Assembly (NCBI RefSeq): GCF_055900595.2
Contig: NZ_CM148325.1
Direction: 5' to 3' (one strand)
Length of the DNA: 64,000 nucleotides
The notes beneath the pieces were generated by a model. The model was not told the origin of the DNA, did no database searches, and saw only the letters and a program-made list of their open reading frames with translations. Shown here in pieces: positions 25,574 to 30,861 of this stretch. Within the stretch, counting starts at the first letter, position 1. Each line of letters opens with the position of its first letter. The translations under genes were made by a program, and so were the position numbers.

Positions 25574-26854
25574 TTATTGGCCTTCACAGGCTGTGTGGTA
25601 CTGCGCCAGGATGTCCTGAATATGGTTGATAATGAGTTCCCGTGGCGTTGGCTGCAGCTCGCCGGAGCGAACTTTCACGTATTGCAGCGGCAGGTACTGA
25701 CTGATGAGCGGCAGCGGAATTGGTGCATCCGCCAGGTTACGAACCAGATGGGCGAAAGCGTCATCAATCTGGCTGTCCGGCCAGTAATAGCGCACGCGAT
25801 CCGAGTAGCTATAACCACGCGCCAGACGACGCGCGTTGCCATCACCGTGGTAGTGGCTTTGCCAGTATTCCGGGCGGTCGAGCATCACGTTTTCCAGCAC
25901 CTGACGCAGACCGGAACAGGCTTTTGCTGGCACCAGTTCTTCTTCAATCGCCGCCAGAGAGAACAGAGCTTCACGCAGGGCGAAGGTGAGCGCCGGACCA
26001 ACTTTCAGAATGGCAAAGTGGTCAATCACCAGCTGGCGCAGCGATTGCGGCGTTTGGTAATCGGTAGAGTGCGCTTCGAAAATCAGCGTTTCGTAGTTTT
26101 CGACCATCTGGCTTAAGGCGGTCGCTTTAGCTGGCTGATAATCAATAACGTTGGTGTGATCGAATTCGACGCCGGGTTGTACCACCAGAGCAATGATGCG
26201 TGGCCAGATGGCATTCAGACCTTGCTTTTCAAAGGCGTGACGATGGGCTTCCAGCGTGGCGCGGGCGGCATCCGGCGTAGTGACCGCCAGCTCGCTTAAG
26301 GTTTCATGCGCGCCGCCAGGTACCGGCACTTCGGTACCAATGACATACACCAGATCGGCTTCGCCAAAGTGTTCACGGCAGGTTTCTTCCGCGACTTTAG
26401 CCAGTCGGGCGGCGCGTTCAGCCACGATGTCATCGGTTAAGGGAACCGGATCGTCCTGACAGGACATGCTGCAATCAAGGTGAATTTTTTTGAATCCTGC
26501 CGCCACGTAGCTTTTAATCAAATCATCGGCATTTGCCATCGCCTGAGCTGCAGGCAGGTTTTGCCAGCGGTTTGGCCCCAGATGATCGCCACCCAGAATC
26601 AACGCGTCTTGTGGGAAATTCAATGAGTCGGCGAGCTGACAAACAAAGCCGCGAAAATCGGCGGGTGTCATTCCGGTATAACCACCGAACTGGTCCACCT
26701 GATTGGATGTCGCTTCAATCAGTAACGGTGTTTGGTTTACACTGGCGTAGCGGATTGCAGCTTCCAGCACCAGCGGGTGTGCGGAACAAACGGCATAAAT
26801 CCCATTTGTTTTGCCCTCTTTGTGCTGCCTCACCATTTCTGTCAGATGTTTCAC
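25574..26854 (-). CDS. kbaZ: Tagatose-bisphosphate aldolase non-catalytic subunit KbaZ (426 aa)
   Basis: Translation recognised as KbaZ/AgaZ; GTG start at 26854 preceded by GGAGAGG; ORF track extends further upstream. Confidence 0.8.
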
Positions 26855-27102
26855 TTTCCTCTCCAGTTCAGATTGCTGCGATATTAATCTTTCGTTTTGT
26901 TTCAGTTGATACTGCGTCATGGTGAGATAAAAATAAAACGAAAGATAATAGTTTTCTGATCTGATTCACAAAAGAAACATAATGAAAGTCACTGAAACGA
27001 GAGTAGCTTGCGTCAATGGGCAAGGTGGGCTTGCATTTGCTCAATAGAAAGGCGTTAATAGGCAAAACGAAATGAAACGAAAGTTTTACGAAAGGACTTA
27101 CT
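26855..27102. promoter_or_regulatory. Divergent kbaZ / agaR promoter region with AgaR-type operator repeats
   Basis: Repeated AACGAAA / CGAAAG motifs (aaacgaaagataatag; gcaaaacgaaatgaaacgaaagttttacgaaagg). Confidence 0.5.
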
Positions 27103-27912
27103 ATGAGTAATACCGACGCTTCAGGCGAGAAGCGAGTGACAGGCACCAGCGAGCGACGAGAACAAATCATTCAGCGCCTGCGACAGCAAGGGAGTGTGCA
27201 GGTTAACGATCTGTCGGCATTGTATGGCGTATCTACTGTGACGATCCGCAACGATCTGGCGTTTCTGGAAAAGCAGGGGATCGCTGTGCGGGCCTATGGC
27301 GGCGCGTTGATCTGCGATAGCACGACGCCGTCAGTCGAGCCATCAGTGGAAGATAAAAGCGCGCTGAACACTGCGATGAAACGCAGCGTTGCGAAAGCTG
27401 CCGTTGAGTTGATTCAGCCAGGTCATCGGGTGATCCTCGATTCCGGGACCACCACGTTTGAGATTGCTCGTCTGATGCGCAAGCACACTGACGTAATTGC
27501 GATGACCAATGGTATGAACGTAGCCAATGCACTGCTGGAAGCAGAAGGCGTTGAACTTCTTATGACCGGCGGGCATCTGCGGCGTCAGTCGCAATCTTTT
27601 TACGGCGATCAGGCTGAACAATCGCTACAAAATTACCACTTCGATATGCTGTTTCTTGGCGTAGATGCTATTGATCTGGAGCGCGGCGTCAGCACGCATA
27701 ATGAAGATGAAGCCCGTTTAAACCGTCGGATGTGCGAAGTTGCGGAACGGATCATCGTGGTCACCGATTCCAGTAAGTTCAACCGTTCCAGTTTACATAA
27801 GATCATTGATACTCAACGTATCGACATGATCATTGTTGATGAAGGCATTCCTGCGGATAGTCTGGAAGGACTGCGAAAGGCTGGGGTTGAAGTGATTCTG
27901 GTCGGGGAGTGA
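27103..27912 (+). CDS. agaR: DeoR-family transcriptional repressor AgaR (269 aa)
   Basis: Translation recognised as AgaR. Confidence 0.9.
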
Positions 27913-27966
27913 GAAATGGTGCCCGCTGGTCAACACCAATGCGTTCGGCGGGCATTGTGAACACCA

Positions 27967-28431
27967 TCAATGGTTTTCTTCTGTCTCTTGGGTGAGGCTT
28001 TCCCAGTCGGCAGGAGGATGTCCTCTTTTTAACATTTTACTGAATACGGTATAGGCATCTGTTTTTTTACCGTAGGTGCGCAGCGTGTTTTCATCGTTCA
28101 TCCATCCCAGAATGATGACTTTCTCTTTTTCACTGTAACGAAAGAAGAGACGATAGCGACCAGCACCAAATTTTACCCGTGACCAGTCTTTATTTTTCCC
28201 AGAGCCTAACGACTTGCCATGACGGAATGCCGGTGATGATGGATTGACCGTGATATGCTCCTCAATCACTTTATGGACCACCGCCAATAACTTTGTGGCA
28301 GCTTTTCTCTGATAATTTTCAGGATCTTTTCCCTTTAATGCCTCGACTTCGGCAACTAAAGCATCGTAGGTTTCCTGAAAACAGGGATGAGCATATAGCG
28401 CCCAACCATTAACCCTTTGTGGAAAATCCAT
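27967..28431 (-). CDS. yhaV: Toxin YhaV, ribosome-dependent mRNA interferase (154 aa)
   Basis: Translation recognised as YhaV; ATG overlaps the prlF stop (TAATG). Confidence 0.9.
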   Translation of the reverse strand: MDFPQRVNGWALYAHPCFQETYDALVAEVEALKGKDPENYQRKAATKLLAVVHKVIEEHITVNPSSPAFRHGKSLGSGKNKDWSRVKFGAGRYRLFFRYSEKEKVIILGWMNDENTLRTYGKKTDAYTVFSKMLKRGHPPADWESLTQETEENH

Positions 28432-28766
28432 TATTCGTCGTCGCCAATCTCATCGTCAATGTTGACGTCCATGCCAGCGACAAGTTTCTTTCCTTGTTGA
28501 ATGTCGAATGGACGAGTTTTTTGCGGGTTGTTCTGGATATCTGCATCCAGAAAACGCAAAAATGCATTCATAGTATGATCCTCCTGTTCATCTCCCAGTC
28601 GGCACATAAATACTTGCCCACCAGGCAGAATTTCGTAATGAATGCTGTCCAGGCCTGGCTTCAGTTTTAAGGCCTCACGCACTGGCGCGGGGATAGTTGT
28701 TTGTCCGCGTATCGTGACCTTTGATTCAGTGGTCAGTACAGCGTTAGAGCGAGCATTAGCGGGCAT
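28431..28766 (-). CDS. prlF: Antitoxin PrlF/SohA (AbrB-fold; 111 aa)
   Basis: Translation recognised as PrlF; acidic C-terminus (DDEIGDDE). Confidence 0.9.
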   Translation of the reverse strand: MPANARSNAVLTTESKVTIRGQTTIPAPVREALKLKPGLDSIHYEILPGGQVFMCRLGDEQEDHTMNAFLRFLDADIQNNPQKTRPFDIQQGKKLVAGMDVNIDDEIGDDE

Positions 28767-28821
28767 TATTTACTGTCCTTTTACAGCCTGTTTTCTGCTC
28801 AAATTATAAGCTTGAACTAAG

Positions 28822-28837
28822 GTAATGCAAATGCATT
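28822..28837. promoter_or_regulatory. Candidate prlF-yhaV operator palindrome
   Basis: Perfect inverted repeat TAATGCA-AA-TGCATTA about 55-70 bp upstream of the prlF ATG; TA modules are typically autoregulated at such palindromes. Confidence 0.4.
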
Positions 28838-28914
28838 ATTAATGGATGTGTGGACTTTAAACAATAAAAACATGGCACTAAGGCCATGTTTTGCGAGGGA
28901 CGTTCCAAAAGAAA

Positions 28915-30486
28915 TCAGGTCACCGGTGCCGGGTTAAACACCGCCAGCTGGTTATGCAGTCCCCATTGATCTGAGAAGGTTTTCTTCTTCCCGCTGGCGA
29001 CGTCGAGAATAAAGTGGAACAGCTTCCAGCCCACTTCTTCTATGGTTTCTTCGCCGGTGGCGATGGTGCCTGCGTTGATATCCATTAAGTCAAACCAACG
29101 GTTTGCCAGTTCGGTGCGGGTCGCCATTTTAATGACGGGTACTACCATCAGGCCATATGGCGTGCCGCGACCGGTCGTAAACACTTGCACGGTAATCCCT
29201 GATGCCACCTGTTGCGTGCCACAGACAAAATCGCTGGCTGGCGTCGCGGCGTAAATTAATCCGCGTTTAGTCGGGCGTTGACCGGGCGATAGCACTTCAA
29301 CAATTGCGCTTTTACCCGATTTAGCAATGGAGCCGAGAGCCTTCTCCACTACGTTTGCCAGACCGCCTTTCTTGTTGCCCGGAGAAGGGTTGGCGCTGCG
29401 GTCGGTTTTTCCCATATTCAGATAGTTATCGTACCACTCCATCTCTTCCAGCAGACGCTTGCCGACCTCTTCGTTCACTGCGCGCGGCGTCAGCAGATGG
29501 ATCGCGTCACGCACTTCTGTGACTTCCGAGAACATCACTGTTGCACCGCAGCGCACCAGTAGATCAGACGCATACCCAACCGCTGGATTTGCCGTTACGC
29601 CAGAAAACGCATCGCTGCCACCGCACTGCATGCCGACAACCAGTTCTGAAGCCGGACAGGTTTCTCGCTGACGTTGATTCAGTTTTTGTATATGGCGTTC
29701 GGCGACCTGCAAAATATCCTCGACCATGGACTGAAAACCGACATGCTTTTCATCCTGCAAACTGACAATGCTGGCGCTTTCTACTGGAATAGCTTGCACA
29801 TCATCCGTTCCAGTCAGCAGGCGCTCAGGCTGCAACTTTTCACAACCCAGACCAATCACCATTACTTCGCCGCCAAAGTTAGGGTTCAGCGAAATATTGT
29901 GAATGGTACGGATAGGCACAACTGCCGCCGGTGCGTTAATCGCCACGCCACAACCGTACAAATGATTCAGCCCCACCACGCCATCGACGTTCGGGTATTT
30001 CGGTAGCAGATCGCGTTCAATGATTTTTACTACGTAGTCCACCACGCCTGCCACACAGTGGACGCTGGTGGTGATGCCGAGCAGGTTTTTGGTGCCCACG
30101 CTGCCATCAGCATTGCGATAGCCCTCAAAGGTGTATCCTTCCAGCGGCGGTAAGGGTTCCGGGACTTTGGTTGCCAGTGGCAGTGTGTGTAACGGCGGCG
30201 CTTCCGGTAGTACAACCATTGATTCGTCGATCCAGCTTCCGCGTGGGATTGCGCGCACGGCGTAACCAATCACTTCACCATAACGAATAATTTCACCATT
30301 AGCCGGAATGTCCAGCAATGCGACTTTATGCCCCTGGGGAATATGTTCAATTAATTCCAGCCCATCCGGAAAACGCGTTCCTGCTTTCAGGCCATTATCA
30401 TTAACAATAATTGCCACATTATCTGTGTCATGAACTTTTATATAAAACGCAGTTGGCGTTTCTTGTCTGATTTCGATGTTGGCCAT
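28915..30486 (-). CDS. garD: Galactarate dehydratase GarD (523 aa)
   Basis: Translation recognised as GarD. Confidence 0.95.
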
Positions 30487-30861
30487 TGTGCAATATTCTC
30501 CAGCCAGGGGTTATTAAAATGAGGATCTGGTCTCATTTAAAAAATAAATGACTTCATTGGGTGAAATAAGAATGTCAGGAGTTTAAACGCAGAAATGTGA
30601 TCAATGTCAATCATTTCAGGGATTGCAGTGCCGCCCGGCAGGGTAAAGCGCAAATCTGTGCTTTAGCGCGCAACCTTATGTGCATATGCTCAAAATAATA
30701 TTTAAATAGTAATAATAAAATTAGCATTTGCACAATGATTATTATTCTCTCGCTGCTTATACTAATTCCTGAGTTCATTGTCGTAACGGCATAAATAAAA
30801 CTCATAAATAACACATTCCCCATAATAATAAAAATCAGCATAAGTACCCGAGGTAAATAAA

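Follow-up and report, generated by a model that had tools for sequence, protein, structure and literature searches.

The PrlF-YhaV toxin-antitoxin operon of Escherichia coli on a probably acquired 1004-bp cassette between agaR and garD

In the 64,000-nucleotide stretch of DNA analysed here (contig NZ_CM148325.1 of RefSeq assembly GCF_055900595.2; hereafter the window), the minus-strand gene pair lying between agaR and garD is the PrlF-YhaV type II toxin-antitoxin operon already characterised in E. coli, and it very probably resides on a horizontally acquired cassette of 1004 bp (27910-28913). The system itself is already known and adds no new biology. What is added here are the base-pair boundaries of the cassette, the ancestral empty allele, a rewritten agaR 3' end and an apparent exchange between E. 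coli and E. albertii, useful and modestly informative details that do not make a new kind of system. The E. coli pair is said to have been described in 2007 as a RelE-like toxin with an AbrB/MazE-like antitoxin and a palindromic operator.

Gene content and protein families

The pair and its neighbours are laid out as follows:

27103-27912, plus strand: agaR
27967-28431, minus strand: yhaV, toxin gene for a RelE/ParE-fold ribonuclease (154-aa ORF; Pfam PF11663)
28429-28433, minus strand: TAATG stop/start overlap, a probable site of translational coupling (read from the ORFs and the sequence)
28431-28766, minus strand: prlF (sohA), antitoxin gene (111-aa ORF; Pfam PF15937, NCBIfam NF007429)
28496-28509, minus strand: heptamer pair ATTCGAC-ATTCAAC within prlF
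28915-30486, minus strand: garD

The identity of the genes, already proposed in the first-pass annotation, was borne out by profile searches and by the annotation of near-identical sequences. YhaV matched the Pfam family Toxin_YhaV (PF11663; 6.6e-54, 182.1 bits, cut-off 35) over 137 of the 138 profile positions, and PrlF matched both PrlF_antitoxin (PF15937; 4.1e-41, 139.6 bits, cut-off 32) and the NCBIfam PrlF equivalog NF007429 (7.5e-50, 167.6 bits, cut-off 125). YhaV was matched by no NCBIfam model, and neither protein by the PADLOC defence models. The region 27880-28930 was 100% identical to a canine E. coli isolate and 97.7% identical to K-12 BW25113, and the RefSeq annotation of these 97.7-100% identical matches agrees with a prlF-yhaV pair. 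In an Rfam scan of 27600-29200 the sole match was a chance-level one to isrF (14 bits against a cut-off of 40).

As had been noted, the pair is inserted between agaR and garD with very short flanks: 54 bp separate yhaV from the agaR stop and 148 bp separate prlF from the garD stop, the same distances published for K-12 (PMC5120126). The plus strand at 28429-28433 reads CATTA, that is, TAATG on the coding strand, with the TAA of prlF and the ATG of yhaV sharing one A, so the nucleotide previously described as common to the antitoxin stop and the toxin start is found in the ORFs and in the sequence alike. This 1-nt T(A/G)ATG overlap was kept in all five close homologous loci. According to an RNA-seq meta-analysis, prlF and yhaV share one transcript (antitoxin/toxin mRNA ratio, 1.11), the difference between both products being made at translation (PMC5535158).

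YhaV was modelled with AlphaFold2 from its alignment with high confidence (pLDDT 96.1, pTM 0.90), and the top Foldseek matches of the model in the PDB were chains of the PfiAT complex, E. coli RelE, HigB2, M. tuberculosis RelE, YoeB and ParE (probabilities of 0.97-1.0). Since the model is confident and its best matches belong to that superfamily, the predicted RelE/ParE fold of YhaV is verified here at the level of the model. One of the PfiAT chains matched is presumably the toxin of that complex. A search of the PDB by sequence found no relatives of YhaV or PrlF. Across 52 diverse YhaV homologues, from a family of 984 clusters at 50% identity, residues P64, R85, R94, F96, W110, N112, R118, D125 and Y127 were invariant. 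The PrlF and YhaV proteins of the window are approximately 96-98% identical to those of K-12, and every family-invariant residue is kept. Of the invariant residues, the arginines R85, R94 and R118 fit the conserved basic active-site residues of RelE/ParE toxins, and a review states that YhaV activity is lost when two conserved arginines are replaced (PMC5408214). Growth arrest by YhaV and its neutralisation by PrlF are likewise known from what is written on the K-12 orthologue in passages of two reviews (PMC7781912, PMC5408214), and DNA binding, toxicity, Lon dependence and ribosome-dependent cleavage are all taken from the literature, not from this analysis.

PrlF is putatively a DNA-binding antitoxin of the AbrB/MazE type. 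Its residues 15-43 resembled MazE_antitoxin (17.5 bits, below the cut-off of 24.7), the TIGR01439 AbrB domain (26.4 bits, below the cut-off of 28.3) and, weakly, AbrB-family PDB chains (E 0.14-0.21). The AlphaFold model of the PrlF monomer was poor (pLDDT 68) and gave no meaningful Foldseek match, as is to be expected of an obligate swapped-hairpin dimer, a fold that requires both chains. The heptamer pair in prlF, which we take to be the site of the prlF1 7-bp duplication hot spot, is imperfect in this strain, the Asp88 codon of the window breaking the perfect ATTCAAC-ATTCAAC tandem of K-12. Natural PrlF variants of 118/125 aa and of 130/137/144/151 aa hold extra heptamer units.

The palindrome at the prlF promoter

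Two overlapping elements lie upstream of prlF:

28803-28831, minus strand: predicted sigma-70 promoter with -35 TTTGCA at 28831-28826, a 17-nt spacer and -10 TATAAT at 28808-28803 (10 of 12 consensus matches)
28823-28838, no strand assigned: candidate operator palindrome TAATGCA-N2-TGCATTA, with arms at 28823-28829 and 28832-28838 (inverted repeat, 100% complementary, 2-nt spacer)

A perfect TAATGCA-AA-TGCATTA repeat had been pointed out upstream of prlF and proposed as a plausible autoregulatory operator. The repeat was indeed located at 28823-28838, 57-72 nt upstream of the prlF ATG, and the exact 16-mer occurs once in the 64-kb window. The -35 TTTGCA sits inside the palindrome, at its centre, so that any protein occupying the repeat would keep RNA polymerase off the promoter. 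Taken by itself the palindrome is not significant, because a perfect 7+7 palindrome with a spacer of up to 4 nt appeared in 5.9% of the shuffles of the 148-nt spacer; it is the position and the conservation of the repeat that carry weight. The full palindrome was invariant among the window, K-12, E. albertii and Pseudocitrobacter, and the core AATGCA-N2-TGCATT recurred ahead of prlF homologues in six settings with non-alignable flanks, namely the E. coli locus and the following:

Pseudocitrobacter and Enterobacteriaceae G50: gene order garD-prlF-yhaV-PfkB kinase
Salmonella prophage-like island: adjoining an antirepressor gene, motif GTAATGCATTTGCATTAC
Cedecea davisae type III secretion (T3SS) cluster: motif ATGGTAATGCAATTGCATTACCAT
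Pantoea megaplasmid: between malM and malQ, two tandem copies of the motif
Metagenome contig L092: core motif kept

Among the homologues, the distance from the core to the ATG is 72-86 nt in five loci and 54-72 nt on the Pantoea plasmid; a -10-like hexamer (TATAAT, TATATT or TATACT) follows at a fixed distance.

The literature points in the same direction. In a passage of a review that refers to Schmidt et al. (2007), a PrlF2-YhaV4 hexamer is described as binding to a palindrome of the promoter that precedes prlF and as dimerising cooperatively on binding (PMC7781912), and a second review lists prlF-yhaV among the modules whose toxin may serve as co-repressor (PMC8138530). A full-text literature search for the operator sequence returned no relevant paper printing it. 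Given the review statement and the phylogenetic footprint obtained here, the 16-mer at 28823-28838 is in all likelihood the palindrome bound in Schmidt et al. (2007). The reading of the palindrome as the PrlF-YhaV autoregulatory operator is thus supported by its overlap with the -35 box, by the conservation of its core in six contexts and by the binding described in the review.

It could be argued instead that the repeat arose by chance or serves another regulator, autoregulation being exerted elsewhere. Such a proposal would find some backing in the frequency of comparable palindromes in the shuffled spacers, in the F-plasmid PrlF/YhaV homologue (44% identity), in which the motif is absent, and in the fact that the match to the literature binding site goes back to a passage in a review and not to primary footprint or EMSA data. 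Nevertheless, the 14-nt core is kept next to unrelated neighbours and within non-alignable flanks, which by chance would be expected about 1e-5 times in a 150-bp region; the palindrome also covers the -35 box, and the review passage itself has the complex binding a palindrome in this very promoter (PMC7781912). Furthermore, the sole locus with a damaged motif, in which the left arm is mutated, is that of a decayed prlF pseudogene. A function other than that of the PrlF-YhaV operator is consequently extremely improbable.

With the palindrome read as the PrlF-YhaV operator, the single sigma-70 promoter (-35 TTTGCA, -10 TATAAT) would give rise to a bicistronic prlF-yhaV mRNA, on which, as we infer from the TAATG overlap, translation of yhaV would be coupled to termination of prlF, keeping the antitoxin in excess. 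PrlF in complex with YhaV would then bind the 16-bp palindrome on the -35 box and repress the operon, and upon degradation of PrlF the RelE-fold ribonuclease YhaV would cleave mRNA and bring about growth arrest.

Boundaries, empty alleles and origin of the cassette

The segment considered here comprises more than the two genes, and was delimited through homology breakpoints against empty alleles:

27910-28913, minus strand: whole cassette, probably acquired (1004 bp), comprising the agaR stop codon, a downstream hairpin, yhaV, prlF, the promoter/operator and an upstream terminator
27910-27912, plus strand: agaR stop codon TGA, attributed to the cassette (empty alleles end in ...VG(E/D)HASSL*, an island remnant in ...VGELASSL*)
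27920-27954, no strand assigned: hairpin between the convergent yhaV and agaR (TGCCCGC/GCGGGCA), candidate weak bidirectional terminator
28857-28892, minus strand: predicted intrinsic terminator of garD (10-bp stem at 28867-28892, 6-nt loop, T-run; fold -13 kcal/mol, z = -2.4)

Of 5426 complete E. coli genomes, 5132 (approximately 95%) carried the cassette. A probe made of the joined flanks uncovered an empty allele in strain E2348/69, in which no more than 51 bp separate agaR from garD. Homology of the window with this allele, with the corresponding junction of E. whittamii and with the island remnant ends with the GAG at 27909 and is found again from 28914, 1 nt ahead of the garD stop. The empty allele holds 69 bp of its own sequence, which extend agaR by five codons (...HASSL*) and include a bidirectional, strongly folding hairpin (z = -3.2 and -3.9). 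As judged from these alignments, the cassette appears to have taken the place of some 70-80 bp between agaR and garD, among them the ancestral bidirectional terminator and the five codons that closed agaR, and with the agaR 3' end replaced the present TGA would belong to the cassette, leaving an AgaR of 269 aa against the ancestral 274 aa.

The 69-bp empty junction was matched at 99% identity or more by 188 E. coli genomes, among them UTI89, S88, APEC O2:K1:H5, E2348/69 and the type strain ATCC 11775. A joined agaR-garD junction was found in 635 genomes, but these are not 635 empty sites, as approximately 340-450 of them represent a second, 89%-diverged junction that the 69-nt probe (188 genomes) separates from the first: a second agaR-garD copy, located in a malX-linked island, also has an empty-type junction. 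EC23HZZ201, a further candidate, was discarded as an empty site, since it carries an IS1-mediated deletion of prlF-yhaV together with the whole aga cluster. A third allele follows garD in E. coli SCPM-O-B-8794, where the remains of a decayed prlF are joined to rsmI. The absence of yhaV from some B2 strains, e.g., HM605, had been noted before (PMC7232551).

Outside E. coli, loci were surveyed by a GarD search with one genome per species (80 loci; E. fergusonii, E. marmotae and E. ruysiae are not among them). Among these 80 loci, the cassette lay between garD and agaR only in E. albertii. A cassette-free garD-agaR-kbaZ arrangement was found in E. whittamii, three Citrobacter, six Kluyvera, several Enterobacter, Trabulsiella, Phytobacter, Klebsiella indica, Salmonella enterica subsp. 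arizonae and Pluralibacter. E. whittamii aside, cassette-free garD-agaR adjacency was seen in about 20 species representatives from some ten Enterobacteriaceae genera. A survey of presence and absence at this position across Enterobacterales had been suggested as a check on acquisition, and the absence of the pair in those representatives means that it is not universal. Both the junction of E. whittamii and the island remnant show clear homology to the empty allele of E2348/69, and therefore the empty state is taken as ancestral. Base composition is suggestive too: cassette GC is 44.8% versus 52-54% in the flanking genes, and GC3 41-46% versus 55-58%, values consistent with acquisition that place the cassette only within the lowest 10% of 1-kb windows here. 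The ancestral empty allele (188 E. coli genomes and E. whittamii), the cassette-free adjacency in many genera and the lower GC together support prlF-yhaV being a horizontally acquired cassette, in line with the small acquired module envisaged in the first-pass annotation.

The cassette of E. albertii is 98.7-100% identical to that of the window, whereas garD and agaR are 88.6% and 88.1% identical, respectively. The tract of high identity runs from ~29100 to ~27950 and decays inside the flanks (garD 3' end). An almost identical cassette within flanks of about 88% identity argues for a recent import and not for vertical inheritance, and the exchange between E. coli and E. albertii probably took place by recent homologous recombination through the flanking genes. 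The cassette would thus have replaced the ancestral spacer and subsequently spread by homologous recombination via conserved flanks, also between both species.

The opposite scenario, in which the cassette was ancestral at this site and was deleted wherever it is now missing, might be entertained given that ~95% of E. coli carry it, as does the more distant E. albertii, and deletions do occur, as illustrated by the IS1-mediated event of EC23HZZ201 and the decayed prlF of SCPM-O-B-8794. The empty allele is not a deletion scar, however, because it holds 69 bp of its own sequence, with agaR codons and a strong terminator, homologous to the junctions of E. whittamii and of the 89%-diverged island. 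Cassette-free garD-agaR in about 20 species representatives of some ten other genera and the import signature of E. albertii weigh in the same direction. On these alignments deletion from an ancestral cassette appears largely refuted, and we grant it next to no probability.

The hairpins bordering the cassette require separate consideration. Terminator-like hairpins had been reported on both sides of the pair, and both exist: the first lies at 27920-27954, as claimed, and the second at 28867-28892 instead of 28880-28905, about 13 nt away. The latter, in which the minus-strand stem-loop at 28892-28867 is followed by TTTTTATTGTTT as in Rho-independent terminators, is on sequence grounds a canonical intrinsic terminator, predicted to act on garD. 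The hairpin at 27920-27954 has a stem of 7-14 bp and a large loop, its z is close to -1 whichever strand is folded, and the yhaV strand offers no T-run; it was not called in a terminator consensus scan, and its role as a terminator is uncertain. The description of the hairpins as terminator-like flanks is therefore apt for the garD side and applies to the agaR side as a weak candidate, and neither of the two points to the end of a mobile element. The hairpin motif CATGGCCTTAGNGCCATG was found only in cassette-bearing loci, which suggests that the garD-side terminator arrived with the cassette; in Pseudocitrobacter, this hairpin stands at both cassette ends. In the operon, the garD-side hairpin would end garD transcription and, as we infer, shield the prlF promoter from read-through, and the agaR-side hairpin may separate the convergent yhaV and agaR.

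The cassette ends in E. coli, TGAGAAATGG... and ...CCAAAAGAA, show neither terminal inverted repeats nor a target-site duplication, and ORFs of at least 40 aa in the cassette are limited to prlF, yhaV and three overlapping ORFs, with no transposase or integrase among them. The hallmarks of a mobile element that were looked for (transposase/integrase, terminal inverted repeats, target-site duplication, attC) were thus not found in the cassette. A 6-nt AGAAAT occurs near both cassette ends, probably by chance. In Pseudocitrobacter and G50, a cassette of 77-78% nucleotide identity starts right after the garD stop, preceded by the same upstream hairpin and followed by a PfkB kinase gene. A garD-anchored transfer is plausible, but one-sided, homology-anchored transfer from a Pseudocitrobacter-like donor was not demonstrated, the garD 3' end being only marginally more similar (90% versus 84-86%).

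Could the flanking hairpins be the functional ends of a small non-autonomous mobile element that targets hairpins or terminators? The confinement of CATGGCCTTAGNGCCATG to cassette-bearing loci and its duplication in Pseudocitrobacter would fit such an element, as would the start of the cassette 1 nt after the garD stop in Escherichia and in Pseudocitrobacter/G50 despite different downstream neighbours, and the occurrence of prlF-yhaV homologues in many unrelated intergenic spots. Yet the 1004 bp lack a transposase or integrase ORF, the E. coli ends lack terminal repeats and target-site duplication, and 70-80 bp were replaced, which is not a simple insertion. Moreover, the two E. coli hairpins differ from each other, the Salmonella, Cedecea and Pantoea homologues have other or no flanking hairpins, and the transfer between E. 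coli and E. albertii resembles ordinary homologous recombination mediated by the flanks, all of which makes such an element quite unlikely. A related idea, that the cassette is a self-contained "plug-in" unit with its own operator/promoter and terminators that lodges by the garD stop and terminator through a hairpin- or terminator-directed route without a recombinase of its own, would, if true, explain the garD junction common to Escherichia and Pseudocitrobacter and the duplicated Pseudocitrobacter hairpin; we consider it very unlikely. Acquisition by replacement of the ancestral spacer, followed by flank-mediated recombination, is the reading retained here.

The empty site persists alongside the occupied one in E. 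coli today, for instance in the B2 lineages of UTI89, S88, E2348/69 and the type strain. This bears on the treatment of prlF-yhaV as "core", as approximately 3.5% of the complete genomes are without the cassette at this site, the B2 sublineages having either retained or re-imported the empty allele. The natural empty and occupied alleles also provide isogenic-like material for testing the cost or the contribution of a chromosomal toxin-antitoxin cassette.

Comparison with known systems

In keeping with acquisition of the cassette, YhaV homologues were found on 328 plasmids, 175 of them conjugative, and in one Vibrio phage record. The plasmid PrlF/YhaV modules (Pantoea, Acetobacter, the Roseobacter group and E. 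coli F plasmids) share the two-gene architecture and the Pfam families of the window pair, but are only 37-54% identical to it. In the Pantoea module the AATGCA-N2-TGCATT operator is kept, in two tandem copies, whereas the E. coli F-plasmid homologue has an intergenic gap in place of the 1-nt overlap and is devoid of the palindrome.

With RelBE, HigBA and PfiAT, the resemblance is structural. The YhaV model can be superposed on RelE, on HigB2 and on chains of the PfiAT complex (Foldseek E 1e-4 to 1e-2, probability ~1.0), and the arginines are conserved, but sequence identity to these toxins is only 9-17% and YhaV is larger (154 aa versus ~90-110) owing to extra N-terminal helices. Its partner, putatively AbrB/MazE-like, also differs from the RelB- and HigA-like antitoxins of RelBE and HigBA. 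Conversely, PrlF resembles MazE and AbrB through the weak matches of residues 15-43, all of them below curated thresholds, and through its probable action on a palindromic operator at its own promoter, and departs from them in being paired with a RelE-type instead of a MazF-type toxin.

The closest known system is PrlF(SohA)-YhaV of K-12, which occupies the same locus in the same order (garD, 148 bp, prlF-yhaV, 54 bp, agaR), with an identical promoter, palindrome, terminator stem and TAATG overlap. The differences are allelic only, amounting to 24 in 1051 bp (97.7% nucleotide identity), and in PrlF they include Asn8, Leu39 and Asp88 in the window in place of His, Gln and Asn in K-12, respectively.

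Heptamer repeat within prlF

The classic prlF1 7-bp duplication maps within prlF, to window 28496-28509 (- strand). The K-12 gene carries here a perfect tandem heptamer, ATTCAAC-ATTCAAC, and the strain of the window has ATTCGAC-ATTCAAC, giving Asp88 where K-12 has Asn; with this arrangement, slippage should be lower. Among public PrlF sequences, the 118-aa and 125-aa variants contain in-frame FNIQHST units, and those of 130, 137, 144 and 151 aa, many of them from Shigella sonnei, are frameshifted. These length variants show natural variation in heptamer copy number, resembling that of a contingency locus. Asp is also found at position 88 in distant homologues, and for this reason the slippery K-12 allele looks derived.

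Mosaic flanks, deletions and a second agaR-garD junction

Comparison of the window with K-12 revealed 97-99% identity over the cassette and the 5' half of garD, only 89-95% over the 3' half of garD (window 28915-29700) and 89% over a 100-bp block of agaR (window 27487-27586). Such mosaic flanking genes suggest that recombination is frequent around the locus. Two large deletions, independent of each other, begin at the cassette. An extra agaR-garD junction, ~89% diverged, is present in about 340-450 E. coli genomes.

Rearranged or additional loci in other E. coli genomes
L001 5284-6076 (EC23HZZ201): IS1A-mediated deletion that begins upstream of prlF, takes out the entire aga cluster and extends to yraI
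L081 5573-6030 (SCPM-O-B-8794): prlF remnant fused to rsmI by the second large deletion
L003 10695-13336 (E. coli CUVET21-1780): example of the second junction, matching window 27513-27912 and 28915-29314

The prlF remnant of SCPM-O-B-8794 retains 79% identity, with one operator arm mutated and both the RBS and the ATG removed by a 60-bp deletion. At the second junction agaR is intact (274 aa), garD is a pseudogene and there are fragments of aldolase; the whole sits within an island, adjoining malX, an enterotoxin gene and IS elements. This copy, which keeps the cassette-free agaR-garD arrangement, is a fossil of a foreign chromosome segment.

Two further features of the neighbourhood concern gene starts and regulation. 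The kbaZ ORF (window 25574-26920, - strand) encodes 448 aa counted from the first ATG; since KbaZ of K-12 and E2348/69 has 426 aa (1281 nt) in the RefSeq annotation, translation probably begins at an internal ATG located 22 codons further on. The AT-rich region (GC 36-40%) between the divergent garD and garP genes, window 30487-30861, is probably the gar regulatory region.

Cassette ends in Pseudocitrobacter

The Pseudocitrobacter prlF-yhaV cassette carries at both ends the hairpin ACATGGCCTTAGGGCCATGT, the same one that lies upstream of prlF at window 28867-28892.

Copies of the hairpin in a Pseudocitrobacter MAG
L012 5600-5617: ACATGGCCTTAGGGCCATGT, one end of the cassette
L012 6540-6557: ACATGGCCTTAGGGCCATGT, the other end

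In Pseudocitrobacter and E. coli alike, the cassette starts 1 nt past the garD stop codon, whereas its downstream neighbour differs between them, being a PfkB kinase gene in Pseudocitrobacter.
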